Positions 10,391-46,839 of a DNA stretch of 64,000 bases are shown piece by piece. A program made the translations under genes and the position numbers. A model generated the notes under the pieces. It did no database searches, had not been told where the DNA came from, and saw nothing but the letters and a program-made list of their open reading frames with translations. This stretch comes from Thermoanaerobaculia bacterium (GTDB lineage Bacteria > Acidobacteriota > Thermoanaerobaculia > Multivoradales > JAIOJS01): contig CAWDWV010000002.1 in NCBI GenBank assembly GCA_963806095.1, positions 1,781,424 through 1,845,423 of the forward strand, given 5' to 3'. Each line of letters starts with the position of its first letter. Position 1 is the stretch's first letter.

Positions 10391-10475
10391 GGGGCGATCA
10401 CGGCTGTCTGGGCTACGATGCCGGCGACGTTAGCATGCGCCGCGGCGCTGCCGCCGGCCACACGGAGGAGCGACG

Positions 10476-10853: not shown

Positions 10854-10869
10854 CGCGGCCGAACGTTCG

Positions 10870-11214
10870 GTGATGCCGATGATCGTCGCGCAGGCCCTTC
10901 CGCCGCTGTGGACGATGGGCGTCGCCGCCTGGCTCCTCGTCGCCATCCCGCTGGCCTTCTCGGTTTCCTTGATGGCGATCGTCTTCACGGTGACTCCGCA
11001 ACGCGGCCACAGATTCGTGCGGGTGCTCGCGCTCCTCGGTCTGGTCGTCGGTCTGTTCCACGCCGCGTTGATCGCCTGGTTCGCATCGTTCGCCGAGCTG
11101 GAACGTCCCGGCCTCGAAGAATGGCTCTGGATCGCCATGATGGCCGCGACGGTCGCCCTGTCGGCGGCGGCCTGGGTGCGCTCTCGGGCCGGCCGCCGAG
11201 TCGCTGCAGCCTAG
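10870..11214 (+). CDS. Small membrane protein
   Basis: Three hydrophobic segments; fills the gap between genes. Confidence 0.6.
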   Translation: MMPMIVAQALPPLWTMGVAAWLLVAIPLAFSVSLMAIVFTVTPQRGHRFVRVLALLGLVVGLFHAALIAWFASFAELERPGLEEWLWIAMMAATVALSAAAWVRSRAGRRVAAA

Positions 11215-11924: not shown

Positions 11925-12002
11925 GACAGCGCGCGTCGCGGCTCGCCGGGCCTTGCAACCCGCGGGCGGCGGCACCGTACCAGGCTTGGTGACCGGGCCC
12001 TC

Positions 12003-12047
12003 TTGACGACAGCTGTCGTTACCGATTATCCTGACGACAGTTGTAGT
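12003..12047 (+). promoter_or_regulatory. BlaI-type operator pair overlapping a sigma70-like promoter
   Basis: ACGACAGCTGTCGT (12006-12019, perfect palindrome) and ACGACAGTTGTAGT (12034-12047); TTGACG-N18-TATCCT. Confidence 0.75.
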
Positions 12048-12078
12048 GACTCAAGATCACGCAGGGATCGGAGGTCAG

Positions 12079-12474
12079 ATGGCGCGCACGCGAGCGAGTG
12101 GAGTGGGCGAGCGGGAGCTGGCGCTGCTGCGCTGGGTGGCGGCGCAGGGCGGCGCCACCGTCGGCGAGGCGGCCGACGGCTTCGGGGCGGCGGACGGTCT
12201 CGCCCGTAGCACGGTGCAGACGATGCTCGAACGGTTGCACGAGAAGGGCTTCCTGCGCCGGCGCCGGCAGGGGGGAGTCTACCGCTATGCGGCGGCGCAG
12301 CCGGCGGGCGAGCTGCTGCGCGGGCTGGTGCACTCCTTCGTCGAGGGCACGCTCGGCGGCTCGCTGTCGCCCTTCGTCGCCTACCTGGTCGAGGAGGGCG
12401 CCGCGAGCGCCGAGGAGCGCGCCGCGCTGGCGCAGCTCGTGGAACGGCTGGAGGAGAGGAAGGGGGAGCCGTGA
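12079..12474 (+). CDS. BlaI/MecI/CopY family repressor
   Basis: GERELALLRWV, LARSTVQTMLERLHEKGFL, GGSLSPFVAYL; GGAGG upstream. Confidence 0.93.
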   Translation: MARTRASGVGERELALLRWVAAQGGATVGEAADGFGAADGLARSTVQTMLERLHEKGFLRRRRQGGVYRYAAAQPAGELLRGLVHSFVEGTLGGSLSPFVAYLVEEGAASAEERAALAQLVERLEERKGEP

Positions 12475-14414: not shown

Positions 14415-14643
14415 CGCTCGCACCGAGCCGCCTGCAGGCCGCCCTCGGCCCGAGGACGGACCGCGCCGTCGGCGCCCATCGGGGGGCATCGCAAATCGCT
14501 GCAAATAGCGTCGTTTGACAAGCGACTTGCTGGCCAGCCGGCTCGGTGGTATGCGCCTTGCTGACTGCTGCCTGGGCCGCGCACCCGGCCCTATCGAGGC
14601 CACAACCCTTGAAAACCCGGCGCGGCCGCCGAGGAGGTGCACC

Positions 14644-16306
14644 ATGAAACGCCAGTACCGAGCGTTTCTGTTGAGCTTCGTGCTGCTCGCCGCGCCGGCC
14701 GCCGCCGGCCAGGGTGGGCAGGGGCAGGGTCGCGGCGACGGCGCCAAGGCGCGAGTCGAGCGACAGGCTGCCCGCCAGAACGTCCAGAACGCCAAGCAGA
14801 ACCGTGCGGCCCACCGCCAGGCGGCCGCGCAACGTCAACAAAAGGTCCGCGCCGACCGGCAGCAAGGCCGCGCGACGCGCCAGCAGGTCCGCGCCGAGCG
14901 TCAAGTGCGAGCCGAGCGTCGTCAGGTGAGCGGCGAACGCAAGGGCGCGCGCGTCGAGCGCAAGGCCGCGCAGGTCGAGCGGCGCGCCGCCGCCGTGGAG
15001 CGTCGCCAGGCCCGCGTCGAGCGCCGCCAGACGGCGGTGATGGACAACGAGACGCGGCGCGAGGTCAGCCGCGGCAACAACGCCGCGCAGCAGCGCGTCG
15101 TCCGCCAGCAGCGGGAGGCGCAGCAACTGCGCACGGCGGAGCGCGATCATCGGGCGGCGTTCGAACGCCAGCAACAGCGCAACCTCCGCCAGGAGCGGGC
15201 GACCGCCCGCGCCGAGCAACGACGGGCACTGGTGGAGCAGGGCCGACTGGCCCGCGAGGAGCGCCGGGCCGTCCGCGTCGACCGTGCCCAGCGCGGCGAC
15301 CGACTCGTCGCGCGCCAGGCCTTCCTCGTCGACGACGCGCGTTGGGCGCGGCAGCAGCGCGTGCTGCGCCGCCAGCAGCCAGCCGCGGGTCCGATGCGGT
15401 TCCGCGGCATCGACCGCGACGGCAACGGCGTGGTCTCCCGCCTCGAGTGGCGGGGCAACGACCGCTCGTTCTCCAACCACGACTGGAACGGCGACGGCGT
15501 CCTCTCGGGCGCCGAGGTCGTGCCGGGCGGTCAGCCGTCTGGCGGCGCGCCGAGCGCTTCTCCTTCGTCGAGCGCTTCGTACCGCTGCCTCGACGTTTCG
15601 TGGCGCCGGTGCCGCTGGTAGCGATGCCGCTCGGGCCGGTGCCGGTGGCCTTCGTGCCGCTGCCGCCGCTCTCGACGGCGTTGCCGTTCTCGTTCGACGA
15701 GACGCGGTGGGAGACGGTCTTCCGCACGCAGGGCTTCGGCCCCGTCGACCTGGTGGTGAGCCGCGTCGACTTCGCGCCGGTCGACCGCGTGCTGGTCGCC
15801 GACCGCTTCGTCTAGCGCTCGACGCCGACCGCGACCGCTTCGTCAGCTACGACGAGTGGACGGGGCCGCGGCCGATCTTCCGCCGGCTCGACCTCGACGA
15901 CGACCGCTTCCTGGTGCCGAGCGAGCTGGTGGTGAGCCGTCCGCTGGTGCGTCGGTGACGCTGGTCGACCGCGATCGCTACGTCGCCTTCGCAGCTGATC
16001 GACGTCGACGACGACGACGTCGTCGCGCCGTGGGAGTGGACCGGAGACATGGACGTCTTCTTCCTGCTCGACGTCGACGACAACGGCGTGCTCGACCAGT
16101 CCGAGTACCTCGGCCTGGTGCGCTCGGAGCCGGTGCCGGTGCGGCTGATCGCCGGTGGGGCGCTCGACCTCGACGGCAACGGCTACGTCACCCGCTACGA
16201 GTGGGTGGGCGATCCCTACCGCTTCGTCAGCCTCGACCTCAACGCCGACGGCCGGGTGAAGCCGGCGGAGGCCGTGGCCGGGGCCCTGCTGGCGACGCAG
16301 ATCTGA
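14644..16306 (+). CDS. Secreted multi-EF-hand protein with Arg/Gln-rich N-terminal half (frameshifted)
   Basis: Signal peptide, AGGAGG upstream; DxDxxG loops DRDGNG, DWNGDG, DADRD, DLDDD, DVDDD, DVDDNG, DLDGNG, DLNADG in successive frames. Confidence 0.75.
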
Positions 16307-32921: not shown

Positions 32922-34752
32922 GCGCGCGCCGCCAGCTCATCCGCGCCGGCGCCTACCTCGACTCCGTCGTGCTGCTCGAGCTGCAGCGTCGCTTGAGCGC
33001 CGAGCCCGGCGTGCTGCGCGTCGCTGCGGTGATGGCGACGCCGGCGAACCAGGAGGTGCTGGCGGAGGCCGGCCTCGCCGGCGAGGAGACGAGCGCCGCG
33101 CGTCCCGACGACCTCGTCGTCGTCGTCGAGGCGGATCGACGAAGCCGCGGCGGCGACGGCGCTCTCGCGCGTCGACGAGCTGCTCACGCAGCGCCGCCAA
33201 GTGGCGGCGACCGCCGCGCGCCCGCGCAGCCTCGACTCGGCGCTGCGCGTGCTGCCGGCCGCCCACTGGGTGCTGGTCTCGGTGCCCGGCGCCTACGCGG
33301 CCGAGGTGGCGTGGAGCGCGCTCGGCGCCGGCCGCCACGTCTTCCTCTTCAGCGACCACGTGCCGCTGGCGGAAGAAGTCGCGCTCAAGCGGGCGGCGCG
33401 GCAACGCGGCCTGCTCGTGCTCGGGCCCGACTGCGGTACCGCGGTGGTCGCCGGCACCGGCCTCGGCTTCGCCAACCGCGTGCGACCGGGGCCGATCGGC
33501 GTCGTCGCCGCTTCCGGCACCGGCCTGCAGGCGGTCCTCGCACACCTCGACGCGCTCGGCACCGGCGTCACGCAGGCGCTCGGCACCGGCGGCCGCGACC
33601 TCTCCGCGGAGGTCGGTGGAATCGCCGCGACGCAGGCCCTGCAGCTGCTCGCCGCCGATCCCGCGACGCGCGTCATCGTGCTGGTGAGCAAGCCGCCGGC
33701 GCCGGCGGTGGCGGGGCGGCTGCTCGCCGAAGCGCGCGCGCTCGGCAAGCCGCTGGTGGCGTGGCTGCTCGGCGTGCCGATGCCGGCGCGTCGCGTCGGC
33801 AACGTCTGGTTCGCCGCCTCGCCGGCCGACGCGGCCGAGCTCGCGCACTCGCTGGCGCGGCACGAGGAGGCGAGCTCGCCCGACTTCGGCAACGGCACGG
33901 CGGAAGAGCGCGAGCCGTCGACGCCTGGCACCGCGGCTTCGCGATCCGCCGCGGCCCGCTCGCTCGAGGGAGGCTCGACCGACTCACTCCCCGTCATGGA
34001 GCGCCCGGCCGCGCCGCCGGCCCCGACGGCGCGCCGGCGCCGGGCCGCTACGTGCGCGCGCTGTGCGGCGGCGGCACGCTGGCGATGCAGCTCGTCGCCG
34101 GGCTGCAACTGCTCTGCGACCCGCTCTACAGCAACGTCGCGCTGCGCCCCGAGCAGCATCTCGAGGATCCACTCAGCAGCCGCGCCCATTGCGTTGTCGA
34201 CATGGGTGCCGACGAGCTCACCGCCGGCAAGCCGCACCCGATGCTCGACGCGCAGCCGCTCGCCGAGCGCCTCGCAGTGGAGGCGGCCGATCCCGAGGTC
34301 GGCCTGCTGCTGTTCGACGTCGTGCTCGGCGACGGCACCAACGCCGATCCTGCCGCCGTGCTCGGCCCGGCCGTGGAGGCGGCGCGCGAGCGCGCTGCTG
34401 GCGAGGGGCGCCCGCTCACCGTGGTGGCGCTGCTGCAGGGCACGAGCGGCGACCCGCAGGACGTCGAGGCTGCAGGCGGCGCGGCTCACCGATGCGGGCG
34501 CGCTCGTCTGCCGCTCGCTGGAAGAGGCGCTCGCCGCGGCGTGGGAGCACGTCGCGCAGTGGCTTCCCGAGGAGCCCGCCGCGGCGGTGCCGCCGGCGCC
34601 GTCGCGCCGCCGTTCGCGGCGGTCACCGTCGGCGTCGAGGCGTTCCACGACAGCCTGCTCGCCCAGGGCGCCGACGGCGGTGCAGGTCGATTGGCGGCCG
34701 CCCGCGGGCGGCGACCCGGACCTCATGGACCTGCTTGCGGAGGATGCGATGA
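32918..34752 (+). CDS. fdrA: Acyl-CoA synthetase-like FdrA (frameshifted)
   Basis: YLDSV, SVPGAYAA, GPDCGT, ASGTG, GTGGRDLS, SKPP, GGTL, PHPM, DWRPPAGG. Confidence 0.87.
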
Positions 34753-36099
34753 GCGTGCGACCGACGCCCCGCGTTGCAGCGATGCGAGCGAGCGGTCGAC
34801 GCCGGCGGCGGCGGCGTACGCCACGTCGGCGCGCCGAGCCCCACCGGCGCCGCCATCGACGAAGCCAATCGCGTCGCCGTCGATCGCATGGCAGCGGTGC
34901 GCCCGCTGCTCACCGGCGTCGCGCGCGCCGGCGACGTCATCCCCGGCCTGCGCCCGGGCGTGCTGCTCCACGCCGGGCCGCCCATCGAGTGGGCACGCGC
35001 TTCGGGCCCGCTGCGCGGCGCGGTGATCGGCGCGCTGCTCTACGAAGGCATGGCCGCCGACGAGGCGGAAGCGGAAGCGCTCGTCGCGCGCGGCGAAGTG
35101 ACGCTCGAGCCCTGCCATCACCACAGCGCCGTCGGCCCGATGGCCGGCGTCACCTCGCCCTCGATGACGGTGTGGGTGGTCGAGGACGCGGCCGGCGGCC
35201 GCCGCGCCTACTCCAACGTCAACGAGGGCTACGGCACGCGTGCTGCGCTACGGCGCCTACGCTCCCGAGGTGCTCGACCGCCTGCGCCGCCTCAACGAAG
35301 AAGTCGCGCCGCTGCTCGGCAAAGCGATCGCCGCCGGCGAGCCCGTCGACCTGCGCGCGCTCGTCGGCGAAGCGCTGCACATGGGCGACGAGGGGCACAA
35401 CCGCAACCGCGCCGGCTCGCTGCTGCTGCTGCGCGCGCTCGGCCCGCGGGTCGCGCGGGTGGCGAGCGACGGCGAAGCCGCGGCGGCGGCGCTCGACTAC
35501 CTGGGCGGCAACGCGCTCGCCGTGCTCAACCCGCTGATGGCGGCGTGCAAGCTGATCGCCGACGCCGGGCACGGCGTCGCCGGCTCGACGCTGGTGTCGA
35601 CGATGGCGCGCAACGGCACCGACTTCGGCATCCGCGTCTCCGGCCTCGGCGACCGCTGGCTGACGGCGCCCTCGCCCGTGCCCGACGGCCTCTACTTCGC
35701 GGGCTACGGCCCGGCCGACGCCAACCCCGACATCGGCGACAGCACCATCACCGAGACCGTGGGCCTCGGCGCCTTCGCCATGGCGGCGGCGCCCGCCATC
35801 GTCACCTTCGTCGGCGGCTCGCCCGAGGAGGCGATCGGCGCCACCCTCGAGATGTACGAGATCACCGTCGCCGAGAGCCCGCACTTCACCATCCCGCAGC
35901 TCGGCTTCCGCGGCACGCCGACCGGCATCGACGTGCGCAAGGTCGTCGAGCTCGGCATCACCCCGCGCATCAACACCGGCATCGCCCACCGCGAAGCCGG
36001 GAGTGGGCCAGATCGGCGCTGGGCTCGGTGCGGCCGCCGATGGCGCCGTTCGTGGAGGCGTTGAAGGCTTCGGCGCTGGCGCTGGGCATCGCCGGATAG
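34749..36099 (+). CDS. ylbE: DUF1116 (YlbE) protein (frameshifted)
   Basis: LLHAGPP, PCHHHSAVGPMAG, MGDEGHNRN, MARNGTDFG, DIGDS, INTGIAH. Confidence 0.87.
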
Positions 36100-36144
36100 G
36101 TACCGCGCACCTCCCGCGGGCCGAGTCGATGCTCATGTGGCCGG

Positions 36145-37455
36145 CTATCTAGCGGGCGTGAGGATCCAGGCCGCGACGGACTCGATGATGCCGGGCGCCG
36201 CGTGCCACCAGAAGAAGGGTTCGCCTGGCTGCGGGCGGACGGTGAGGTTGTGCTCCGCCCGGGGAGCGATCCAGGCGGCATAGTTTGCGCCGCTGCCGTC
36301 GAGAGCCGCCTCGATCTGCGCGATGCTCTCGTCGACCGGCACCAGGCGGTCGCGCTGCCCGTAGACGAGCAGCACGGGGCATTTCACCTGGCGCCAGAAG
36401 TCCAGAGAGTCGACCGCGCCGGTCCTCGGGTACCAGGCCCAGAGCCAGGAGTCGCGGGGAGGAATGCCGAGCCACTGGAACCAGCGCTCGCCGGCGACCG
36501 GTGCGCTCGCCGCCTCGAGCTCGGAGTGAGGCCGCCGGCCGAGGGCGACCTCGACGAAGATCGCGTAGAGCGCCATGGCGCGCTCGGCTTCGTCGGGCGG
36601 GAACTCGCTCGCCAGGGCGTTGCGGACCCTGTAGATGTCCTGCTTCCAGGTCGGGCCCGCCGTGGTGTCCTCCGCCACGAGAAAGGCCACGTCGGCACCC
36701 GGCAACGACGCAGCCATCGGCGCGATGATGCCGCCCTGGCTGTGGCCGTGGAGACCGATCCGCCGCATGTCGACCTCGGGGAGGGAGCGCAGCAGGGCGA
36801 CACCCGCGAGCGCGTCGCGGGCCAGCTCCTGGAAGTCCGCCGTTCGCCAGTCGCCCGTCGAGGCGCCGGTGCCGCGCTTGTCGAAGACCAGCGTCACGAT
36901 GCCGGCCCTCGCGAAGCGATCGGCGATGAAGCGGTTGGTCCCCCAGCGCGTCTCGGGTCCGCTCCCGTGGAGCAGGACGACGGCGGGATGGCGCCCGGGC
37001 GTTGTCGGCGAGGCCAGCATGCCCGCGAGGGTCGCGTCGCCATTCCGGAAGGTGACCTCGCGGGTCTTGTAGGGTAGGACAGGCTTCGGCCCGCGGCGTA
37101 GCGCGACGTCGCCCGCCACCTCCTCCCCTTTGAAGGTGCCGCTCAACGTGTCGCCGGCGAGGCGCGCATCGAAGGCGAGGTCGCCGCCGAGGACGAAGTG
37201 CACCGCGCCCTCCTCTCGCGTCACCGAGTCGAGTGGATAGTCCATCGCCCGCTGCGTCGTCGAACTGAAGCGCCCCTCGAGCCCGCGGGCGCCGCTCTCG
37301 AACTCGCAGCTCACCTCCAGCGAGGCGCCGTGCGCGGTCATCGTTCCGCTCCAGTACCCCGCCAGCGGGTCGGTTGCCGCGTCGAGCGCTGTGGTGGAGG
37401 CAAGCAGCGCGACGATCCCGAGGACCAGCGTTCCGGCCGAGCGCATGAAGTCCAT
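36145..37455 (-). CDS. Secreted alpha/beta hydrolase (peptidase S9-like)
   Basis: Signal peptide; HGSG, DKRG, GHSQGG, DRLVP, AEH. Confidence 0.88.
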   Translation of the reverse strand: MDFMRSAGTLVLGIVALLASTTALDAATDPLAGYWSGTMTAHGASLEVSCEFESGARGLEGRFSSTTQRAMDYPLDSVTREEGAVHFVLGGDLAFDARLAGDTLSGTFKGEEVAGDVALRRGPKPVLPYKTREVTFRNGDATLAGMLASPTTPGRHPAVVLLHGSGPETRWGTNRFIADRFARAGIVTLVFDKRGTGASTGDWRTADFQELARDALAGVALLRSLPEVDMRRIGLHGHSQGGIIAPMAASLPGADVAFLVAEDTTAGPTWKQDIYRVRNALASEFPPDEAERAMALYAIFVEVALGRRPHSELEAASAPVAGERWFQWLGIPPRDSWLWAWYPRTGAVDSLDFWRQVKCPVLLVYGQRDRLVPVDESIAQIEAALDGSGANYAAWIAPRAEHNLTVRPQPGEPFFWWHAAPGIIESVAAWILTPAR

Positions 37456-37475
37456 CGTAGCCGGCGGGGAAGCCG

Positions 37476-38156
37476 CTAGTCCTTGACCTTGCTCCCAAGC
37501 GCCTCGGCCGCCCACAGCACGAACGAGCAGCCGATGGGGAAGAGCAGCTCGTTGATCCCCTTGGCGACGAGGTCGATCGCGGTGGGCGCCTGCGGCGCGG
37601 CGCGCACGAGCACGGCGATGATGGCGCTGCCGAAGACGACGCCGACGGCGGCGCCGGTCAGCAGGTGGACGCGCAGGTTCGGCGTGCCGCCGCGGTTGCC
37701 CAGCCCGCCGACGGTGGCGCCGAGGATGCCGTACTCGAGCGCCTTCAGTGCCACGACCACGAAGGTCGATCCAACCGCGGCGCCCGAGATGAGCCCCAAC
37801 GCCTGGCCGACGCCTTTGTGCGCGGCGCGCGCGACGTGGAAGCCGAGCGGCGCCGAGATCAGCCCCAGCAGCCCCATGCGATCGGATTGCCGCCTGCCGG
37901 CGGTGTTGCCGATGGCGAGGCCGACGCAGACGATGGTCGCCCAAGAGACCTTCTGCGCCAGGTCGGCGACCACCGGCGCGAGCTTCGGAAAGCCGCGGGT
38001 GGCGGCGACGGCCACCAGCAGCAGCTCGATGGTCAAGCCGAGGAGGACCGACATCCAGCCCACGCGCAGCACCCGGCGCCAGACGGGAGCGCTGGTTGTC
38101 GTGGCACCATCCGCCGGCAGGAGCGGGGAAGGGGAGGCGAGGCTGACTTGGGTCAT
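37476..38156 (-). CDS. Multi-pass membrane protein of unknown function
   Basis: About six hydrophobic segments. Confidence 0.75.
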   Translation of the reverse strand: MTQVSLASPSPLLPADGATTTSAPVWRRVLRVGWMSVLLGLTIELLLVAVAATRGFPKLAPVVADLAQKVSWATIVCVGLAIGNTAGRRQSDRMGLLGLISAPLGFHVARAAHKGVGQALGLISGAAVGSTFVVVALKALEYGILGATVGGLGNRGGTPNLRVHLLTGAAVGVVFGSAIIAVLVRAAPQAPTAIDLVAKGINELLFPIGCSFVLWAAEALGSKVKD

Positions 38157-38438
38157 CGATGTTCGCGGCTCGTGACTCGGCGGATTCTACGCAGCGCCCG
38201 CCTCGCAGGAGTGCTCGTCACGGCCGCCTCCTCTACCTCCTCTAGCGGAAACGAGCCGAGAACCTGCTCACCCGGTGGCGAACCAGCCACCACGGTCGGA
38301 TGCGGGGCAGTAGTAGGGTCCGCTCTGCGCACAATTCCCAAGCGAGCCGTAGCCCGCCGCGATGAAGGCGTGAGTTTGCGTGCCATGGCTTCGCGCATCT
38401 CATCGGGCGGGCACCGCCAGAAAATGCTACAGTGGAGT

Positions 38439-39968
38439 ATGAAATCTTTATTTTTGGCCGCGCTGGCGATACTGGCCACGACTGCCACGGTCGCCGCGGC
38501 GAGCACGGTGAGTCCCCAACCGACGCTCGACGGTCGCCTGGTGACAGCCGCCAGCCTCATGGAGCGGCTCGGCGAGCGCGCCGGTGGCGAGGTGGTCCTC
38601 GAGAACCTCCCGTTCGCGACCGGCGAGCTGAGCCTGAGACTTCACAGGCTCGACCTCTTCGAGCCAGGCTTTCGGCTGGTCGTCGGCGGCGAGCTCCGGA
38701 CATCACACGACCCCGCCCGCTACCTGGTGCTTGCCGGCGAGGCGGCGCAACACCCGGGCTCGCTCGCCGTCCTGGTGCTCGATCGACGACTCGGCGCCGG
38801 CAGCGGCGTCGTGCGGTGGGAGGATGAGGCGTGGGCCGTCGAGGTGGCCGGTGGGCAGGACGACCTACCCCTCGCGGCGATCTGGCAGGCCCGCCGCGTC
38901 GCCGCCGAGAGCGCGCTGTCGCTCGAATCCGACATGGTCTTCGCCTCGGCGGCGGAGCCTGTGGCGAAGGCAGCAAAGCCGCGGATCGTCCCGGCGCCCG
39001 GCAGCGAGTACGCCGCCTCCTTCGTCGTCGACAGCGACCACGAGTTCTTCCAGCGGATGGGCTCGGAGGACCGGGCCCTCGCCTTCGTGGCCGAGGTGAT
39101 TGGTGCCGCCTCGGAGCTCTTCCACCGCCAGGTCGGGGCGAGCTTGACCATCCAGGAGCTCGTCCTCAATCCCACCGCTGACGACCGCTGGGAGGCACCG
39201 AACCCCCACCAGTGCGGGTCGCTGCAAGTGCTGAGGGAGTTCGGCGAGTGGTACCAGTCGCATCGGCCGGTCGCGAGCTTCCCGCGCGCCGCCGCGATCC
39301 TCTTCACCGGCAAGCAGGCGGATTGCGGCGGCCAAGCCGTCATCGGCGGCATCTGCGGACAGGTTCGTCGCCAGGACCTTGGCTACGGGACGATCGTCGT
39401 CTCGTCGAACAACGCCGCCCCGCACTTGCAGTCGGCGGCCCACGAGGTGGGACACCTGTTCGGCTCGGTGCACACCCACTGCTACCAACCGCCGATCGAC
39501 GTCTGCAGTGCCGTCGAGGCCGATCGCGGATGCTACGACGGCCCTACCGAGTCCCCCTCCGACGGTGGGTCGCTGATGAGCTACTGCACCAACCGCGCCT
39601 TCTCGCTCGGCGAGGCCGGCCGCTACGGGGACCGCAGCGAGCGCGTGCTGCAGGCGATCGGCGCGCAGCTCGTGCAGGTGGCGCCCTCCTGTCTGCAGCG
39701 CACCAACGACCCTTACGCGCTTCGCCTGGAGGTGGCCGGTCGCACCGTCACTCTCGCGTGGGAAGACCGCTTCCAAAACGAGAAACGCTGGGAAGTCGAG
39801 CAGCTGCAGCGCAACGGCAAGTACAAGCGCGTCCGCCTGCTGCCAGCCAACGCCACCGGTGTTGCCATCCCCGGCCAGAAGCCCGGAACCACGGCGTTCC
39901 GGGTGCGCGCGCAGGTCGGCCGGGACTTCGCCGAGTACTCGGCGGTGGTCGAGATCACGGTTCCCTGA
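38439..39968 (+). CDS. Secreted M12 (reprolysin-like) metallopeptidase with C-terminal FN3-like domain
   Basis: Signal peptide; HEVGHLFGSVH zinc motif; Met-turn SLMSYC; TLAWEDR...FRVRA...YS. Confidence 0.9.
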   Translation: MKSLFLAALAILATTATVAAASTVSPQPTLDGRLVTAASLMERLGERAGGEVVLENLPFATGELSLRLHRLDLFEPGFRLVVGGELRTSHDPARYLVLAGEAAQHPGSLAVLVLDRRLGAGSGVVRWEDEAWAVEVAGGQDDLPLAAIWQARRVAAESALSLESDMVFASAAEPVAKAAKPRIVPAPGSEYAASFVVDSDHEFFQRMGSEDRALAFVAEVIGAASELFHRQVGASLTIQELVLNPTADDRWEAPNPHQCGSLQVLREFGEWYQSHRPVASFPRAAAILFTGKQADCGGQAVIGGICGQVRRQDLGYGTIVVSSNNAAPHLQSAAHEVGHLFGSVHTHCYQPPIDVCSAVEADRGCYDGPTESPSDGGSLMSYCTNRAFSLGEAGRYGDRSERVLQAIGAQLVQVAPSCLQRTNDPYALRLEVAGRTVTLAWEDRFQNEKRWEVEQLQRNGKYKRVRLLPANATGVAIPGQKPGTTAFRVRAQVGRDFAEYSAVVEITVP

Positions 39969-40004
39969 GCGGACCCGCGGGCGGCTCCAAGCGGGCCGGC
40001 GAGG

Positions 40005-41120
40005 TCACCCGGATGGCCTCCGCCTTTCCCTCTCGACTTTGAGCCAGTCTTGGGCCCGGTGCAACCCGACCCGAGCGTCTGGTAGGAAGAGGCTCTTCGG
40101 GAAGCGAGCCATGAAATCGGCGTACCCTCGAATCAGCTCCTCGTAGTCGACCTCGCCACAGCGGGGTCCGTTGGGCAGTCGCGACATCCACCATGCTTCG
40201 TCCGTCTCGGGACCGCCGGGGAAGAGCCGCAGGTACTCTTCATATCCCTCGGTCCCAGCGACCCACGTCCCACCGAAAACCTCACACGAGTAGAGGGCGA
40301 CGCCAAGCGATCCAGCCTTCTCGATTAGGGCTCCCGCCGCCCGATCTCTAAACAAGAGATCGGCCACGCGATCAGCCCCGCGGTTCAGCTTCAACCAGGC
40401 CAGCGCCCTCTCGGCATCGCTCGATGAGCTACTGATCTCGTCGCGGTGAGCACGCATCTTGGCGATCTCCATCTCGACGAGAACGTGCCGGAAGGCTCGA
40501 TTACGTTTCCGGATGGCGTCGGGATCCTCAGCAGCCTGGCGCGTCAGGTCGACGTCCACCGGCGGCGTCACCTCAGACAGAGTCGATCCGGCGGGGGCTG
40601 GACCGAGGATTTGGATCTCGCCAACGCCGCCTGTGCTTGCGAACGTGATGATGACCTCACGAACACCCGGCGTCGCGGCGGGCAGCGCATAGACCATCGG
40701 CACCTCTTCCCGGATCACCAGCGTCGACATCACCAGCGACAATGGCCCCTCCCCTCGCAATTGGACCCAGAAGCTCTCCGGCGAGCCATAGAAGTCATAG
40801 AGGTCGCCACTGGACTCGATCACCACGGCTCTCACCGTGACGGCTTCCGAGAACCGCACCACCACGAAGGCCGCCGCACTCGGCAGCCACGTGGAGTAGT
40901 TGATGCCATTCACGACGTTCCTGCCGCCGTCGAAGGCGTTCCGTACGCCGTAGAAGGCGTCGTCCTGTAGCCGCGCTTCGCTGCTCCGACTGGCGTACAC
41001 GCGGGCGATGGGGAGCCGGGCGAGGTTGACCAGATCAATCTCTGAGCTCCCCGCCAGGCAGGGCACCGCACCGATTAGGGCGACTGTCAGTCCCTGAACC
41101 CACGCTCTGTAGCTACGCAC
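40005..41120 (-). CDS. Secreted hypothetical protein (beta-sandwich N-terminus, helical TPR-like C-terminus)
   Basis: Long ORF with lower GC; signal-like start; YEEYLRLFPGGP and YADFMARFPKS repeats. Start uncertain. Confidence 0.7.
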   Translation of the reverse strand: MRSYRAWVQGLTVALIGAVPCLAGSSEIDLVNLARLPIARVYASRSSEARLQDDAFYGVRNAFDGGRNVVNGINYSTWLPSAAAFVVVRFSEAVTVRAVVIESSGDLYDFYGSPESFWVQLRGEGPLSLVMSTLVIREEVPMVYALPAATPGVREVIITFASTGGVGEIQILGPAPAGSTLSEVTPPVDVDLTRQAAEDPDAIRKRNRAFRHVLVEMEIAKMRAHRDEISSSSSDAERALAWLKLNRGADRVADLLFRDRAAGALIEKAGSLGVALYSCEVFGGTWVAGTEGYEEYLRLFPGGPETDEAWWMSRLPNGPRCGEVDYEELIRGYADFMARFPKSLFLPDARVGLHRAQDWLKVERERRRPSG

Positions 41121-41266
41121 AAGCCCTCCTGGCTCTGATATCGCGAGTGGCGCGACTCCGCCTCGCCGACTCCTCGTCCACTGACTTAGCCTGCGGGTCG
41201 GGCGTGGCGCCGCCGTGGCCCTAATCGGGCAGCGTCGTGGCGGGCGCAGCGAGCAGCGAGCAGCGC

Positions 41267-41292
41267 CACGTGACCGGTGCATGGCACCGGTT
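41267..41292 (+). repeat. RAYT-associated REP copy A
   Basis: CACGTGACCGGTGC-ATG-GCACCGGTT. Confidence 0.8.
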
Positions 41293-41358
41293 CGCCGCCG
41301 GCCGATCGATACGGCCCCCGGTTTGCGCGTCGGTCAGTGCGGCAAACGGGAGGGAGCC

Positions 41359-41490
41359 ATGACCAATTCGCGCGCTCGCCACGCCTACCGGGCGTTCTTC
41401 GCCCTGACCGCGCTCCTCGCCGCCGCCCCGGCTGCCGCGGGCTGCGGCGAGGCGGGCGCGGCGAAGTGGCGCGCTCGCGTTCTACCGGCT
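41359..41490 (+). pseudogene. 5' fragment of a secreted protein gene
   Basis: GGAGGGAG upstream plus signal peptide MTNSRARHAYRAFFALTALLAAAPAAAG; coding character is lost after about 41490. Confidence 0.5.
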
Positions 41491-41594
41491 AGACCGACGC
41501 AACTCGTGCCGGAGACCAACGTACTAGCATCAGCCAGCGGAACCCGCCGCCGATGTCAGTGCTCGACCCCGACTCGGATGCGACCCCGACGACT

Positions 41595-41613
41595 CGGATG
41601 CCATGCACCAGTC
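41595..41613 (-). repeat. RAYT-associated REP copy B (inverted)
   Basis: Reverse complement GACTGGTGC-ATG-GCATCCG. Confidence 0.7.
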
Positions 41614-41843
41614 GTCAGAAGATGAGGGCCGAAGAGCCGCTGAGAGGCATCAAGAGCCCGCGCTGGAGTAGGTGCTAGGTCGTCGGCGGTGAAGGGGCCG
41701 CTTTCGGCGGGAGGCGATGGCGGTTTGGAGCCGCGCCGGGAGCCAGTGGCCGCTCCATTTGACCTCGCCAAGCAGAGGAGGCCGTCGAGCTGCAACAGCC
41801 CGGGGGTTAGTTCGATTCTGGAGGCGAGGTCGGGAGCGTCTGC

Positions 41844-42764
41844 TCAGCCGCTTCTGCAGAACGGCAGCGGAGGTGGGAAGCAGCCAGCCGGGAAGACGAC
41901 CTCTCGGCAGCCACTTCTCAGCCGGTGGGCGGCAATGCGGAAAGCAGCGAGGAACGAGAAGTAGGCGGCGCGGATCTCGATGCGCGCCCGTTTACTAGCG
42001 GCATGCACGAGCGGAGCGGGCGAGCGATCGCTCTTCGAGGGACGATCGTGCGGGTCTTGGCGCAGGATGCCGGCCTTGCCGAGGGGCCTGCCACCCTCGC
42101 CGCGGTGACGCGCCGCGGCCTGCTGTTCGATGTCAGCGATCAGGTCGGTGACGCGCTTCTGTATGGCCTGCGGCGCAAGGCGCTTCCAGCAAGGTAACGG
42201 TGCGAGGACGAGCTGGTGGAAGGTAGCGAAGCCGTCGCGCGGAGATTCATCGCCGCTTAGTTTCGCGAGCCACTCCTGGTGGCGATCGAACCAGATGCCG
42301 TCGCAGACCTTCCCAGTGGACAGGGCCTCGGCGCAGTGAGCGCCGGGCCAGTCGCTGAGTCTCGCCACCAGCCCTTCCTTGCAGCCGTGGGCGAGCAGAT
42401 AGCGCAGCCGGCTGACCTGAGCCTCCTCCTCGGTGCTCACGGCAATGGCCTGGTAGCGGCGCTGCAGCAGCGGGCCATGCCAGCGGTGGAGGCGCCCGGC
42501 CTCCTTCGAGAGGTTGGTGTTGACGTAGCAGCAGAAGCGGGCGAGCTCGCGAGCGTCTTTGGGTGTCACCAGGGCGTGCCAGTGATTGGAGAGGCAGACG
42601 AAGGCGTGGACCTCAACTTCGCACAGCGCGGCGGCCCGCGCCAGGATACCGACGAAGATCTCCCGCAAGCCCGCCGAGGGCTTGAGCAGGAATCGTCCCT
42701 GGAGGGTCCTGGTGGTGACCTCGACCAGTTGCCGGTCGGGGAAGAAGCGAAGACGGCGGCCCAC
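41844..42764 (-). mobile_element. REP-associated tyrosine (HUH/Y1) transposase, RAYT-like
   Basis: VEVTTRT, FVCLSNHWHALV (HUH), LLQRRY, LRYLLAHGCKEGLV (catalytic Tyr), WPG; flanked by REPs. Confidence 0.88.
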
Positions 42765-42843
42765 ACGGCTACAAACGGAATTCACGCGGTGAACCTAGCG
42801 CTGCCACTCACGCCTCCGTCACAGTTCCGGACGTTGCACCGCT

Positions 42844-42870
42844 ACTCGTGACTGGTGCGTGGCACCGGGT
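42844..42870 (+). repeat. RAYT-associated REP copy C
   Basis: ACTCGTGACTGGTGC-GTG-GCACCGGGT. Confidence 0.85.
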
Positions 42871-42915
42871 CCCGGGTCCTGGTTCTCTTCCCGTTAAGAT
42901 CCCGTCGGTTCTGCC

Positions 42916-43608
42916 ATGAAACCGTTCGAGACCCTGGCCCGCGAGCGGACTCCCGATGGTGAGGAGTTGACGCTCACCAGCCGCGACGGCGACTACTTCC
43001 TCAATCTCGGGGGTTCGACCCTGATGACGAGCCGCGCCCACGGCTCCGAGCTCGCCCTGGCGAGCCTGGCCTGCCGGGACCTCGCCGCCCAGACGGGGCG
43101 CTCCCGCCCGCGCGTGCTGATCGGCGGCCTGGGCTTCGGCTACACGGTGCGCGCGGCGCTCGACAGCCTACCGCCGCGAGCCGAGGTCTCGGTGTGGGAA
43201 CTTTCCGCCATGGTGCTGGCGGCCAACCAAGGCGAGTTGGTCGCCCTGGCCGGCCGACCGCTCGCGGACACGCGGGTGAATGTGACCCAGGGTGACGTGC
43301 GGCAGGCGCTCGGCAAGGAGCGCTTCGATGCCATCCTGCTCGACGTCGACGACGGGCCCGCATCCTTCAGCCTTCAACGCAACAAGGGGCTCTACTCGGA
43401 CGCGGGCCTGGCTCTGCTGGCGCGTAGCCTTGTACAGGCGGGAGTCTTGGCGGTGTGGTCGATGGCGCCGGACGAGGCCTTCGGGCGTCGACTCACCGCC
43501 GCCGGTTTCGATCTCCAGGTGCACACCGTACGCGGCGGCGCCAGCGGCCGCGGCGTCCGGCACACGATCTTTCTCGCCCGGCAGCCAGCTCACGGTCGCG
43601 ATCGGTGA
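42916..43608 (+). CDS. Spermidine synthase-like SAM-dependent methyltransferase
   Basis: LMTSRAHGSE, VLIGGLGFGYT, DAILLDVDDGP, GVLAVWS. Confidence 0.88.
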   Translation: MKPFETLARERTPDGEELTLTSRDGDYFLNLGGSTLMTSRAHGSELALASLACRDLAAQTGRSRPRVLIGGLGFGYTVRAALDSLPPRAEVSVWELSAMVLAANQGELVALAGRPLADTRVNVTQGDVRQALGKERFDAILLDVDDGPASFSLQRNKGLYSDAGLALLARSLVQAGVLAVWSMAPDEAFGRRLTAAGFDLQVHTVRGGASGRGVRHTIFLARQPAHGRDR

Positions 43609-43720
43609 CGACGAGCGGCGGCTTCCGAAGTGGCTGGCACCAGCGATTCGGCGATTCGGCCGTGCCCTCAACGAGCGCCATGGCGGCGCCGCCTGGGTCA
43701 CGGTTTCGGGGATGCCCGTC

Positions 43721-43762
43721 ACTCGTGACTGGTGCACTCGTGACTGGTGCATGGCACCGGGG
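43721..43762 (+). repeat. RAYT-associated REP copy D with duplicated 15-nt 5' half
   Basis: ACTCGTGACTGGTGC ACTCGTGACTGGTGC-ATG-GCACCGGGG. Confidence 0.85.
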
Positions 43763-43778
43763 TTGAGTGGGTTGAGTG

Positions 43779-44101
43779 GTGCTGCAGTCGATCGGCGCCC
43801 AGCTCGTGCAGGTGGCGCCCTCTGTCTGCAGCGCACCAACGACCCCTACGCGCTTCGCCTCGAGCTCGCCGGGCGGACCGTCACCCTCGCGTGGGACGAT
43901 CGCTTCCAGGGCGAGAAACGCTGGGAAGTCGAGCAGCTGCAGCGCAGCGGCAAGTACAAGCGCGTCCGCGTGCTGCCGGCCAACGCCACCGGCGTTGCCA
44001 TCCCCGGCCAGAAGCCCGGGACCACGGCTTTCCGAGTGCGCGCGCAGATCGGCAGGGACTTCGCCGAGTACTCGGCGGTGGTCGAGATCGCGATTCCCTG
44101 A
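43779..44101 (+). pseudogene. Diverged duplicate of the M12 protease 3' end (39645-39968)
   Basis: By-eye alignment gives about 25 substitutions plus one indel in about 324 nt; no 5' part or ribosome-binding site. Confidence 0.92.
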
Positions 44102-44136
44102 GGCGACCCGGGCGCCTCCAAGGGAGCCGGCGAGCC

Positions 44137-44163
44137 ACTCGTGACTGGTGCGTAGCACCGGGT
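44137..44163 (+). repeat. RAYT-associated REP copy E
   Basis: ACTCGTGACTGGTGC-GTA-GCACCGGGT. Confidence 0.85.
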
Positions 44164-44169
44164 GCTGGT

Positions 44170-44440
44170 GCTGGTGGACCGGCGACGGCAAGCCCACCAT
44201 CGTGCGTCATAGTTACGGGAAAGGGACGGTGATTCTCTTCGCCTACCACCCGGCGGTGCTCATCGGCAGCGACGCCGACGGGGTGGTGATGAGCTACTCC
44301 TACGACGAAGGGACGATCGCCTGGGACGTCGGCGACTGACGCTGGAGCGCATCGCGCTCGACAGCTGGAACGTGGTGCACGCCGCGCCGCGGACCGCTTG
44401 CGGGCGGCCGGTGACGCCGGTCACCGAGCTGCCGGAGTAG
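44170..44440 (+). pseudogene. 3' gene fragment, class I glutamine amidotransferase-like / BPL-N-like
   Basis: GDGKPTIVRHSYGKGTVILFAYHP with host-like codon use, no start, begins right after REP E. Confidence 0.5.
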
Positions 44441-44468
44441 GGCGCCGCTCCGGTCCGCCGGTTGCGGC

Positions 44469-45497
44469 TCAAGTGCCGACGAATCGCACTAGCGAGTCGG
44501 AGATGCGCCGGAACACGCGCGTTGACGCGCTTCGCCGTGCCGGCCGGGGTCGCGTCCAATCGCGCAGCGATCGGCGGTGCTCGCGCAGCGGGTCGAACGC
44601 GACCGCTGCCGGCTCGACGAAAAAGCCGTAACCGCGGCTCGAGGTCCTCGCCAGGAGCGGGACCATCGGCACGCGCGAGGCGAGGAGAGCCGCTGCCTCG
44701 GCACCGAGAGCGCCGTGCTCCTGGACGTGCATCGCGATGCCGTGACGCACCCAGCCCGCCAGGCGGTCATCGGTGGTTGCCAGCAGACGATCGAAGCCGC
44801 GCAGCCAGCGCTGCTCGTCGGGGGGGTCGCGCCGAAAGCGGTACCAGGCAAGGCCCAGCCGCCGTCGCACGTCGGGGGCTCGAAGATCGGCGTGGCCGGA
44901 GACGTAAAGCCCGTAAGCGCGTTGGCGAGCGGCTCGCGTCGGGCTCAGGTCTCGGAAATCCCAGATCTGGCTACAGGACTGTGATCGCCGCACGTCCAGC
45001 ACGGCAATCCTGCCCCAGGGCCCCGTTGTTGATCGGTGAGGAGTCGCGGCCGCGAACCCGGCGGCGACGTGGAGACTGGACGTAAAGTCGATCAGCGCGG
45101 TGGGAAGGCCGTAGTGCTGGCAGAAGGCGAGTCCCTCGTAGGTCGCCGCCACACCCAGCCACTGCAGGCTGGTGATCGTCTCGACCTCAGTGAGGTACGG
45201 CAGAACCAGGCGGTGGACGACTTGGCGGTGGACGAAGTCGGCCACCGCCTCGACTTCGGCCGAGCACGCTGGCGACCCGGCTCGCAACCGCACCAATCCG
45301 CTGGTGGAACGCGGAAAGCACTCGGGCTCGCCGCGGAAAAGCCAGCGCGGGAAGCGGGCGCGGGGCTCCAACTCGCCGGTGTCGATGTCGCGGCTTCCGA
45401 CCAGATACCTCCGCGGGTAGCGAGTCCGCAGGTGCTCGACGCAAGCGGACAGCGACGGGAACTGGCGTTCGTACTCAGGTCGTGTAGCGGCGGCCAT
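44469..45497 (-). CDS. FRG domain protein
   Basis: WLFRGE, QHYGLPTALIDFTSSLHVAAGFA, RAARQRA. Confidence 0.9.
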   Translation of the reverse strand: MAAATRPEYERQFPSLSACVEHLRTRYPRRYLVGSRDIDTGELEPRARFPRWLFRGEPECFPRSTSGLVRLRAGSPACSAEVEAVADFVHRQVVHRLVLPYLTEVETITSLQWLGVAATYEGLAFCQHYGLPTALIDFTSSLHVAAGFAAATPHRSTTGPWGRIAVLDVRRSQSCSQIWDFRDLSPTRAARQRAYGLYVSGHADLRAPDVRRRLGLAWYRFRRDPPDEQRWLRGFDRLLATTDDRLAGWVRHGIAMHVQEHGALGAEAAALLASRVPMVPLLARTSSRGYGFFVEPAAVAFDPLREHRRSLRDWTRPRPARRSASTRVFRRISDSLVRFVGT

Positions 45498-45532
45498 GCG
45501 TCCGGCCTCATGGGCCGTTCTTCAGCAGCCTC

Positions 45533-46057
45533 CTAGCTGTTGTCCCGGACCGTCAACGTTAGCTCGAGCTTCGGCTCGCCCTCGGTGAACGCTTCGTCGA
45601 GCAGGGCGTCTGTGAGTGGGATGAGAATCCTGAACGGCGTAGCCCTCTCCTCCTCGGCGCTGATCGAGCGGGCCGTGCCGCTCGCATACGCTTTCTCACC
45701 CCTGATCAGCCGCAATCCGATGTCGACCCACCGATCGTAGGAGTCGCCGACGAAGACCGCGCCCGTCACCGCCAGGGCGATCCCCCGCTGCTTGCGCGGC
45801 CCAGTCACTACCTTCTCGACCGCGAGCGAGATGAGCGACACGTCCCCGTCGCAGACGTACTTGCGTAAGTTTGGAAGCCTGCGCTCGGTGCCCGGTTCGA
45901 GCTGGCGAACGTCCTTCAACGGGACCTCCAGCACCATCGGGGAGTCGAAGCGGACGAGGTCGGGCTCGGGCGCCGTGCCTTGTCGCGCGGTGACCTGGGC
46001 CAGGACGGGTACGGTGCTGAGGAGAAGTGAAACCATCGTCATCGCGGTACGCATCAT
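45533..46057 (-). CDS. Secreted hypothetical protein
   Basis: Signal peptide MMRTAMTMVSLLLSTVPVLA; ATGA overlap with the upstream ORF stop. Confidence 0.7.
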   Translation of the reverse strand: MMRTAMTMVSLLLSTVPVLAQVTARQGTAPEPDLVRFDSPMVLEVPLKDVRQLEPGTERRLPNLRKYVCDGDVSLISLAVEKVVTGPRKQRGIALAVTGAVFVGDSYDRWVDIGLRLIRGEKAYASGTARSISAEEERATPFRILIPLTDALLDEAFTEGEPKLELTLTVRDNS

Positions 46058-46839
46058 TCCCGGTCTCGCTCCTGCTTCGTTGGTAATTCGATCAAGGCAG
46101 CTTCGCCATCCGCGAGGCCGCCGATAGCGTCCGCCACTTGAGTCGACATCTCGTCGCGAGCCGTGCTCCCGCGATTGTCGAAGATTTCGACCCACAGGTC
46201 GTCGGCGGCTCGCAGGACCCCGAGCTCAACGAACGACGGCTTCGACGTGTCGTCGGCGTAGAACGGCCGAGAGAAGCAGAACGTTCCGGGGTGGAACCGG
46301 CAGTAACGCTCCATGGCGCGGTAGACCTTGCCTTCGGGCGACCAGCCGCGGTTCAACGCCCGCCGTTGTATGAAGACGTTGACCTCTGTTCCGTCGACGC
46401 TGCCGCCCACCTCGTGCCCGATGTAATGACCCTTGTCCCAGGCGGGACCGAACTGGGCGTTGGTCCTGCCGATGAAGCCGCGCAGCCGCGCGTCGTCCCG
46501 CGAGCGCTTACGCGGCCGTGGCGCCGACGTGCCCAGAACACCCACGAGCCGCGCCTCGGCCGTCGAGCTCAGCGGCACGTCGGCACGAGCCTCGAGACTG
46601 GCGAGGTCGTCGTAGATGTACTCAAACGCTCCGAGGCGAATGCGGTCGATTCGCGTCGGGCGTGGAGTCATCGAGAGGTACGCATCGCCCCAGGAGTAGG
46701 GAAGCTCCTCGGACAGATAGGCGATCAATGAAGCGAGTTCGTTGATACCGGCGTGCTTGAGAATCGCGCGATAGTCGATCAACGCTTCGACGCAGGGCGA
46801 TACAGGTGGTCCTGCGATCGGCCCTAACCAGGCTGGCAT
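46054..46839 (-). CDS. DNA/RNA non-specific (His-Me finger) endonuclease
   Basis: DKGHYIGHEVGG...NVFIQRRALNRG. Start uncertain. Confidence 0.8.
   Translation of the reverse strand: MPAWLGPIAGPPVSPCVEALIDYRAILKHAGINELASLIAYLSEELPYSWGDAYLSMTPRPTRIDRIRLGAFEYIYDDLASLEARADVPLSSTAEARLVGVLGTSAPRPRKRSRDDARLRGFIGRTNAQFGPAWDKGHYIGHEVGGSVDGTEVNVFIQRRALNRGWSPEGKVYRAMERYCRFHPGTFCFSRPFYADDTSKPSFVELGVLRAADDLWVEIFDNRGSTARDEMSTQVADAIGGLADGEAALIELPTKQERDRE

Follow-up and report, generated by a model that had tools for sequence, protein, structure and literature searches.

Canonical RAYTs, or TnpA-REP enzymes, are regarded as single-copy, domesticated enzymes that spread tiny repeats, and the insertion sequences (IS) of the IS200/IS605 group as elements that move only themselves. 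In E. coli a gene of the former kind with its flanking repetitive extragenic palindromic (REP) sequences is said to form a unit, the REPtron (compare Ton-Hoang 2012, PMC3333891). Neighbouring DNA is carried by IS91/ISCR elements and Helitrons, HUH-driven systems with one precise and one variable end that leave truncated copies; the enzymes of these systems resemble Rep, act by a rolling circle and form a separate branch of HUH proteins. Here we analyse a 64,000-nucleotide stretch of a Thermoanaerobaculia genome (hereafter the window; GCA_963806095.1, contig CAWDWV010000002.1, positions 1,781,424 to 1,845,423), in which a putative Y1 HUH transposase gene lies among five short hairpin repeats, REP A to REP E, in an array of genes and gene pieces. 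In layout and fold the locus is most like a REPtron, and the reading we favour, at a probability of roughly 0.55, is that a REPtron-like mobile unit sits in a mosaic island and that its hairpin ends seed rearrangements through nicking and joining by the transposase.

The TnpA-REP and IS200/IS605 enzymes bind folded single-stranded DNA (ssDNA) hairpins, cleave at a distance of a few bases, become attached to the DNA through a 5'-phosphotyrosine bond and can pass the strand on to another 3'-OH, and in the account given by Corneloup 2021 TnpA-REP enzymes nick both 5' and 3' of the hairpin and perform strand transfer (PMC8266576). The main text of Quentin et al. 2018 describes a Y---NP tyrosine motif common to all class 2 TnpA-REP, and a class 3 of TnpA-Y1 enzymes, found in Acidobacteria and Planctomycetes and intermediate between IS and REPtron, with a median length of 178 aa, NHVH and Y----Q motifs, and atypical hairpins that have a CnGA foot and occur in up to about 600 copies (PMC6006769). 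The hairpin foot of canonical REPs is a GTAG (or CGTC) tag (PMC3733652). Our literature search, which did not extend to the supplementary tables of PMC6006769, found no paper in which Thermoanaerobaculia are mentioned alongside RAYT or IS200.

The 4.36-Mb contig that contains the window is part of the 5.74-Mb, 72% GC assembly of a soil acidobacterial genome (G000), 69.75% complete by marker genes. Relatives of the genus (G001, G002, G003, G004 and G005) were used for comparison, and 151 genomes of the order, the unpublished G144 included, were screened for the transposase family at E 1e-20 or better, with up to 15 candidate matches scored per genome. Three public sequencing runs hold parts of the window (shares 0.23, 0.07 and 0.06), all as short contigs. 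Several of the counts below are from motif scans picked post hoc, namely those for junction motifs, for the repeat core at 79 related loci and for tandem duplications.

Hairpin repeats of the window

The window holds five copies of the hairpin GACYGGTGC-NNN-GCAYC, spanning 41272-44159 (pattern GACYGGTGCNNNGCAYC, at most one mismatch), all with a 7-bp stem and a 3-nt loop, and all within about 1.4 kb of the transposase open reading frame (ORF), which copies B and C flank. A preliminary description of this stretch, made from the letters alone, had located all five, B and C on either side of the transposase; its coordinates (41267, 41595, 42844, 43721 and 44137) include the 5' foot and are right to a few bases, and it had seen no further copies, nor did our pattern scan of the 64-kb window find any. 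A sixth match to GACYGGTGCNNNGCAYC is the first copy read in reverse, the sequence being palindromic; by chance 0.33 matches would be expected (largest 3), and six were reached in 0 of 100 shuffles. Two types are distinguished by their feet, an 'upstream' type with (A/T)CGTGAC (the plus-strand copies A, C, D and E) and a 'downstream' type with CTGACGAC (copy B, on the sense strand of the transposase). The unit and its repeats are as follows, the cores being those of the pattern scan.

41844..42785, minus strand: predicted Y1 HUH transposase of 313 aa, with SNHWH, Y129 and, at its C-terminus, a conserved domain of ~160 aa that belongs to no known family
41267..41292, plus strand, core 41272-41288(+): REP A, upstream-type, foot CACGTGAC, 21 nt past the end of a module shared with G001
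41592..41618, minus strand, core 41597-41613(-): REP B, downstream-type, foot CTGACGAC, 231 nt after the transposase stop codon
42845..42872, plus strand, core 42850-42866(+): REP C, upstream-type, inverted relative to REP B, the two bracketing a 1.2-kb unit
43721..43778, plus strand, core 43742-43758(+): REP D, with its 5' arm doubled (a 15-nt unit twice, 43721-43750) and a 9-nt tandem repeat after the hairpin, abutting the start of a duplicated protease end (DR2)
44135..44178, plus strand, core 44143-44159(+): REP E, with a GTGCTG tandem repeat after the hairpin, exactly between DR2 and a truncated conserved gene

The unit 41592-42804 recurs at C2:3793087-3794298 with 87% nucleotide identity and the same inverted hairpins, and homology to this paralogous unit begins at 41592, i.e. 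at REP B. Folding energies of the five copies range from -5.8 to -10.9 kcal/mol. REP B alone out-folds all 200 shuffles (z -3.7), the others being equalled by 22, 105, 41 and 75 of 200; because only copy B beats its shuffled controls, the evidence for the hairpins is their recurrence, not their stability.

In many repeat copies the hairpin is directly followed by a short tandem duplication (6-20 nt) of its own, or the 5' arm is present more than once. Examples of this stutter are found in the window (43760-43778, 44163-44178, 42866-42880), in two further regions examined (L019, 6320-6470, with GACTGGTGC repeats, and L021) and likewise in the G028 units described below. By gapless scoring, a short tandem duplication lies 3' of the hairpin in 5 of 15 repeats and at 11% of 20,000 random sites, an excess that is suggestive only.

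A mosaic island with breakpoints at the repeats

The flanks of the locus are conserved in genus relatives (34002-36095, 37472-38157, 44181-44452 and 46812 onward), and in the nearest genomes compared they are 79-90% identical to the window, with the island absent. Between 37472-38157 and 44181-44452 the relatives have a gap of 800 bp (L011) or 759 bp (L012), against 6024 bp here. In G002 and G003 an intact secreted gene of 321/325 aa follows the conserved membrane-protein gene; the window retains only residues 235-321 (44178-44437), with an internal stop, and G000 has no other copy of this gene. The 6 kb between 38157 and 44178 is thus an island that took the place of ~800 bp, and the gap between the island and the gene remnant is filled exactly by REP E (44135-44178). 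We take the locus to be a hypervariable spot, at present occupied by a 6-kb mosaic island.

The repeats coincide with breakpoints. Each of the five lies no more than 46 nt from an independently defined homology breakpoint, and the stretch 36095-46812 has 12 breakpoints, 6 of which are within 46 nt of a repeat core, where we calculate that ~0.6 would be expected; omitting the two set by the paralogous unit leaves 4 of 10. The repeats had been placed at the boundaries of unrelated pieces in the preliminary description. The pieces are these.

38157..44178, no strand assigned: mosaic accessory island, replacing ~800 bp of intergenic region and the 5' 234 codons of the conserved secreted gene
38424..39968, plus strand: intact, secreted M12/reprolysin-like metalloprotease (Reprolysin_5, E 2.7e-20), its last 324 nt and 35 nt downstream forming DR1 (39645-40003)
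40005..41120, minus strand: low-GC gene (63.9%), a long open frame for which no family was found
41293..41591, no strand assigned: orphan spacer holding an 88-codon ORF (41359-41625) with a lipoprotein-like signal peptide
42916..43608, plus strand: intact S-adenosylmethionine-dependent methyltransferase, spermidine-synthase-like (Methyltransf_30, E 6.9e-5)
43779..44134, plus strand: DR2, a 356-bp, 3'-only frameshifted remnant of a second protease allele, with REP D on one side and REP E on the other
44179..44452, plus strand: 3' remnant of the secreted gene that G002 and G003 carry in intact form
44469..46839, minus strand: variable module of an FRG-domain gene, a 220-aa ORF and a 261-aa ORF, with no bounding repeats; context rather than part of the repeat system

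This inventory agrees with much of the preliminary description: the two 3'-only fragments, of the protease and of the secreted gene, the FRG domain (by domain scan), and the intact methyltransferase and low-GC gene, both long open frames. Its '5'-only gene fragment' (41359-41622) fared less well, as the 88-codon ORF has no match in the genome or the fetched loci and only weak matches across the 151 genomes (best E 5.8e-6, residues 1-49), and its 'nuclease' comes down to a sub-threshold Endonuclea_NS_2 match of the 261-aa ORF (E 0.034).

The methyltransferase has a 49% aa paralogue elsewhere in G000. The low-GC gene belongs to a module, 40000-41246, that is shared at 80% nucleotide identity with contig C11 of G001 in a different context (homology 40000-41130 and 41184-41246); in that contig (L014, 6300-6420) a degenerate hairpin-like sequence, GACCGGTGG...GCTGGTGGCACC, lies upstream of the low-GC homologue at the position equivalent to REP A, and G001 has no transposase match. 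As listed, the ORFs of 220 and 261 aa have 142 nt in common; at the position of the module that they form with the FRG gene (44452-46812), G002, G001 and G003 have just 385-1461 bp. A second indel at the locus, 36095-37472, is also without the hairpin repeat: its 1.4 kb are occupied by a secreted alpha/beta-hydrolase-like ORF (within 36145..37944, minus strand), and in G003 just 36 bp separate the same pair of conserved genes. In PADLOC the FRG protein had only weak PDC-S15 matches, and the remaining island proteins had none. No RNA-family or tRNA-linked explanation of the island was found, a scan against Rfam and one for tRNAs having given two sub-threshold chance matches and no tRNA.

Could repeated hairpins and a duplicated protease end simply reflect mis-joined contigs? 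No read or contig of the three public runs spans the whole array, and in one run (X1) contig breaks fall at REP C (records 7 and 8). This explanation is nevertheless very improbable. The contig around the window is 4.36 Mb long, flanking synteny with three relatives is clean, and DR1 and DR2, only 90.8% alike, and the repeats, at 17-27 nt, are too diverged and too short to confuse an assembler. Independent X1 contigs moreover cover 41591-43071 at ~99%, and a metagenome contig from an unrelated run (X2) bridges 39863-40202 at about 91% identity, from which it follows that the junction of protease and low-GC gene is old and shared with a relative. Two X1 contigs carry odd joins that we regard as leads, not evidence. 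One joins ~29 letters ending at 43101, plus GACT, to 41591, the REP B terminus; in the other, a run of 38 letters resembling 44258-44295 stands between 38286 and 38365. The sides of both joins are <40 letters long, and no internal similarity explains the joins.

Hairpin termini reused in a relative

In G005 hairpin termini are reused to the nucleotide. A 34-kb stretch of this genome (L015/L016, C1:58000-92000) holds four full transposase copies and three 3' fragments. One rearrangement is a 518-nt tandem duplication, 99.4% identical, whose joint is at the downstream-hairpin terminus. A second element type ends in ...CTGGTGGGTG, and this terminus abuts four different sequences, two of them unrelated flanks and two of them internal points of transposase genes (residues 84 and 274). 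A 604-nt deletion in one copy of a duplicated stretch starts exactly at the CTGGTGGGTG terminus, and solo end pieces of 240 and 386 nt stand in tandem. The partial copies are 99-100% identical, and the fragments of 240, 386, 518 and ~945 nt all end on a terminus. We regard these events as the best indications that hairpin termini serve as active breakpoints.

The cluster sits among mobile-element genes, including a phage-type integrase, a Toprim/CHC2 primase and a protein with an eCIS-core domain. A 7.3-kb stretch present in two copies, 99.3% identical, also ends on the CTGGTGGGTG terminus; it was at first read as a capture, a reading we down-weighted when an integrase and a primase were found inside it.

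The transposase and its closest described relatives

The window protein is predicted, from its modelled fold and its catalytic residues, to be a Y1 HUH transposase. The histidines of the HUH motif, H68-W-H70 (in SNHWH), and Y129, positioned in helix 120-131 of the model, are invariant in 15/15 aligned homologues. An AlphaFold model made from 15 homologues has a mean predicted local distance difference test (pLDDT) score of 81.8, and its best Foldseek match is E. coli TnpA-REP 4ER8 (E 7.2e-7, TM 0.73), followed by the ISDra2 and IS608 TnpA enzymes (2XMA/2XM3, 2VJV); a sequence-only search of PDB chains with the transposase returned nothing relevant. The profile matches lie below their cut-offs, at 15.3 bits (cut-off 23; E 0.022) for Pfam PF01797 (Y1_Tnp), of which precomputed matches are present on some homologues, and at 44.6 bits (cut-off 80; E 1.3e-11) for NCBIfam NF047646 (REP_Tyr_transpos). 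The tyrosine motif reads R-Y-L-L-A-H-G-C-K-E, with H or Q at +4; the family form is Y-x3-[H/Q]-G and there is no NP. Pfam gave no match for residues 150-313, which are well conserved throughout the family. Among 5.8 billion proteins searched, 3019 relatives were found at E 0.001 or better, the best 120 of which are mostly 297-314 aa long (about 306 aa); the nearest named relatives are from soil metagenome-assembled genomes labelled Thermoanaerobaculia or Acidobacteriota, and some relatives are labelled 'REP element-mobilizing transposase RayT' by one source.

The preliminary description had taken this protein for a RAYT. The Y1 HUH fold, with 4ER8 as best match, the catalytic residues, the position of the gene between inverted short hairpins and the solo hairpins nearby all support the likeness to a REPtron. 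However, the tyrosine motif is Y-x3-[H/Q]-G and not Y---NP, an extra conserved domain of ~160 aa is present at the C-terminus, and the scores fall under the NCBIfam and Pfam cut-offs. RAYTs typically occur in one copy, whereas G000 has three and a remnant, and many relatives have at least ten matches; RAYT genomes have tens to hundreds of REPs dispersed in extragenic space, G000 11 exact repeats; and the feet are CGTGAC, CTGAC or CAGAC, not GTAG. As tyrosine motif, copy number, repeat abundance, foot tag and model cut-offs all fail, the window enzyme is not a canonical RAYT.

With IS200/IS605 elements such as IS608 and ISDra2 the unit shares catalytic fold and residues, subterminal hairpins, precise termini, a multi-copy patchy spread and partial copies. 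It differs in its 313-aa protein, twice as long as a minimal TnpA (about 150 aa), in having no tnpB within its 1.2-1.3 kb, in ends that are mutually inverted like terminal inverted repeats, and in within-genome copies that are often 79-94% alike (87% in G000, 90-94% in G028, 79-86% in G018) rather than near-identical, the partial copies of G005 being 99-100% identical. The class 3 enzymes are approached in the CAGA and CTGA feet of downstream-type repeats of G000 and in the acidobacterial host, but the length of 313 aa, SNHWH, Y-x3-[H/Q] and 11 repeats set the window enzyme apart from that class as the main text of PMC6006769 describes it, a listing in its supplement being possible.

Copy number and distribution

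G000 encodes three intact transposases, the window copy and paralogues at 91% and 70% aa identity, and has a decayed 3' remnant of a fourth at C2:2343558-2343757. Around this remnant (L022, G000:C2:2338000-2348000, at 4905 and 5559-5758) a degenerate downstream hairpin is seen, with a well-preserved solo hairpin ~650 nt further. The genome-wide scan for the repeat that the preliminary description had proposed finds it not to be scattered: the 5.74 Mb of G000 hold 11 exact and four near copies in four clusters, located in the window, at the 91% paralogue, as a solo copy near the remnant, and in a transposase-less island of contig C5. All clusters other than that of the window are in accessory DNA or beside a transposase remnant. 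The feet of the G000 repeats are C(A/T)CGTGAC, CTGACGAC, CCTCAGAC and CCTGAC, none of them a GTAG or CGTC tag. The 91% paralogue has one inverted hairpin downstream and two tandem hairpins upstream, and no repeat array at its locus; no empty site was found for the second paralogous unit, the DNA to whose right is unmatched in the genus. The C5 island is listed here.

G000:C5:735000-752000 (L020), ~4100-15400 of that region: accessory island of ~11 kb with six hairpin copies, three of them clustered at 12284-12384, and no transposase

Its genes encode ParB_N, DUF2130 and DAC-like proteins and a DUF4411 and M78 peptidase pair, and its hairpins border segments of 55-63% GC that have no match in the genus relatives.

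In the order the family is present in 107/151 genomes. Within the genus it is patchy, with 13 matches in G005, one in G004 and none in G001, G002 or G003. A looser hairpin pattern gives mostly 0-4 matches per genome across the 151, close to the control, and only G000 (11) and G005 (13) clearly stand out. In the metagenome scan with the hairpin pattern, 80 of 113 matching stretches were examined and 0/80 encode island proteins (tblastn, E 1e-5). The matches are mostly single, as chance would give, and a few are unrelated palindromes, GTGACYGGTGCCTGGCACC. Four metagenome contigs (L142, L147, L195 and L203) have the perfect GTGACYGGTGCCTGGCACC palindrome with similar flanks, L203 having it twice, inverted; none of the four encodes a relative of the window transposase, and the palindrome may be a repeat family of other bacteria.

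The bracketing of the gene by hairpins recurs across the family. Of 67 related loci with enough flank, 36 have the core TGGCACC 226-272 nt downstream of the stop codon (5/67 in the control orientation), 25 have GGTGCCA upstream and 16 have the core on both sides. The G028 units, 1.33 kb long and 90-94% alike, have terminal inverted repeats, AGGTGCCACCCGATTT, on the same core. The REPtron or terminal-inverted-repeat layout, recurring as it does at related loci and in the G028 units, is therefore a family property. Farther than ~600 nt from the gene the core density over 79 related loci is 0.28 per kb, approximately the composition prediction, so repeat arrays are not a general feature of the family.

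The duplicated protease end

The preliminary description had recognised a 3'-only protease fragment in the array: DR2 (43779-44134) matches DR1 (39645-40003), the end of the intact metalloprotease gene with 35 nt beyond it, at 90.8% over 359 nt, with a frameshift due to a 1-nt deletion. The 25 coding differences between the two are distributed 8/2/15 over codon positions 1/2/3 (chi-square p ~0.006 against an even spread, our own calculation). As differences favour third positions, the divergence must mostly date from a time when the two copies were functional genes. DR2 is accordingly the stump of a second, once-functional allele and no local duplicate that decayed in place. Its junction reads ...GGTTGAGTG GGTTGAGTG|GTGCTGCAG, and the tail of REP E is GTGCTG GTGCTG GTGG.

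Enzyme, host or cassette system

In the reading we favour, the REPtron-like unit consists of a Y1 HUH transposase, of a distinct multi-copy Thermoanaerobaculia family, between the inverted REP B and REP C, and the solo hairpins A, D and E would be ends left from earlier events. The transposase would nick ssDNA a few bases 3' of a hairpin, and the nicked hairpin end would occasionally be rejoined to non-cognate DNA, giving rise to adjacent deletions, partial duplications and head-to-tail 'segment + hairpin' units. By such a process the conserved secreted gene would have lost its 5' part at REP E, and the remnant of an older protease allele would have stayed behind between REP D and REP E. Exchange with a diverged allele would also be needed for DR2. 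It is an inference that the joints are the work of the enzyme and not of host recombination at the hairpins.

A number of observations weigh against this reading. Half of the homology breakpoints (36095, 37472, 38157, ~40003, 44452 and 46812) are without a repeat. DR1 and DR2 differ by 9%, mostly at third positions, so at least one step must have been exchange with a diverged allele. A 6-nt microhomology, GTGCTG, is common to the DR2 junction and the REP E tail; it fits host illegitimate recombination equally well as an enzyme choosing similar cleavage sites. No common cleavage motif was found among the junction sequences. The G018 copies, at 79-86%, are not alike in the manner of an IS, and the 7.3-kb G005 duplicate, carrying a phage-type integrase and a primase, was possibly driven by that integrase.

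Several of these points would be accommodated by passive hitch-hiking, in which the hairpins are the ends or decayed remnants of units that landed repeatedly in an insertion-tolerant accessory region, the joints being made by the host through homology-facilitated illegitimate recombination after DNA uptake, or through slippage at hairpins, and the enzyme having no part. The microhomology, the origin of DR2 from a diverged functional allele and the variation of the locus where there are no repeats (the hydrolase at 36095-37472 and the FRG module at 44452-46812) are all in its favour, as is the chance density of the repeat past the gene flanks at the 79 related loci. Solo hairpin ends do arise by decay, as the decayed transposase remnant with its hairpin at C2:2343558-2343757 demonstrates. 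We nevertheless hold this account to be clearly the less probable, though the most serious of the alternatives, as it leaves unexplained why all five window repeats are at breakpoints and four of the five in one orientation, and why in G005 one terminus is reused to the nucleotide with four partners and duplicates 99-100% identical end on hairpin termini.

The preliminary description had gone further, seeing in the locus RAYT-mediated rearrangement at REPs that works like an integron. The rearrangement part gains from G005, where events do end on hairpin termini. An HUH-driven platform, at whose repeats hairpin-bounded cassettes are captured, exchanged and deleted, is quite unlikely. What recalls an integron is the folded ssDNA hairpin at segment ends and the head-to-tail units in one orientation: the four same-orientation hairpins close segments 3', the low-GC gene by A, the transposase unit by C, the methyltransferase by D and the protease piece by E, and nested 'fragment + hairpin' units are present in G005, as are hairpins at the borders of the lower-GC segments of C5 that are missing from genus relatives. 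The segments are not uniform, however, having genes on both strands, and some being pseudogene pieces; no promoter or attachment site is common to them; and the junction of protease and low-GC gene, bridged by a relative's contig, has no repeat. No integrase or tyrosine recombinase domain was found in nine scanned ORFs of 38400-46839, the sole recombinase candidate being the Y1 enzyme in the middle of the array, and arrays are found neither at the 91% paralogue nor generally at the 79 related loci, where the core, past the immediate gene flanks, is no denser than expected by chance. An integron-like function is therefore not supported.

HUH capture of the ISCR or Helitron kind is live as a minority reading. 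Its pattern of one precise end is seen in G005 and in the window has one compatible case, DR2 with REP E, but the modelled fold matches Y1 TnpA enzymes. A broader proposal, which we put forward as a speculation more likely to be wrong than right, is that Thermoanaerobaculia abound in enzymes of an uncharacterised Y1 HUH branch, which link the 3' terminus of their hairpin to ssDNA of any sequence and so build head-to-tail 'segment + hairpin' arrays. It would be a third independent route by which HUH enzymes capture and shuffle host genes beside IS91/ISCR and Helitrons, with the window island (its low-GC gene, methyltransferase and protease piece) and the nested arrays of G005 as its products.

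Implications

The family joins a RAYT-like fold and a REPtron layout, yet has an IS-like copy number and a large extra domain. Rearrangement endpoints fall on its hairpin termini as well, and it would therefore lend itself to studying whether enzymes of the Y1 kind alter the genes around them. If the joints were not made by the enzyme, the locus would be an ordinary variable island with transposon debris. If they were, they would represent a new hairpin-guided ssDNA joining activity, and the family would add to genome mosaicism in a major soil group of the Acidobacteriota.

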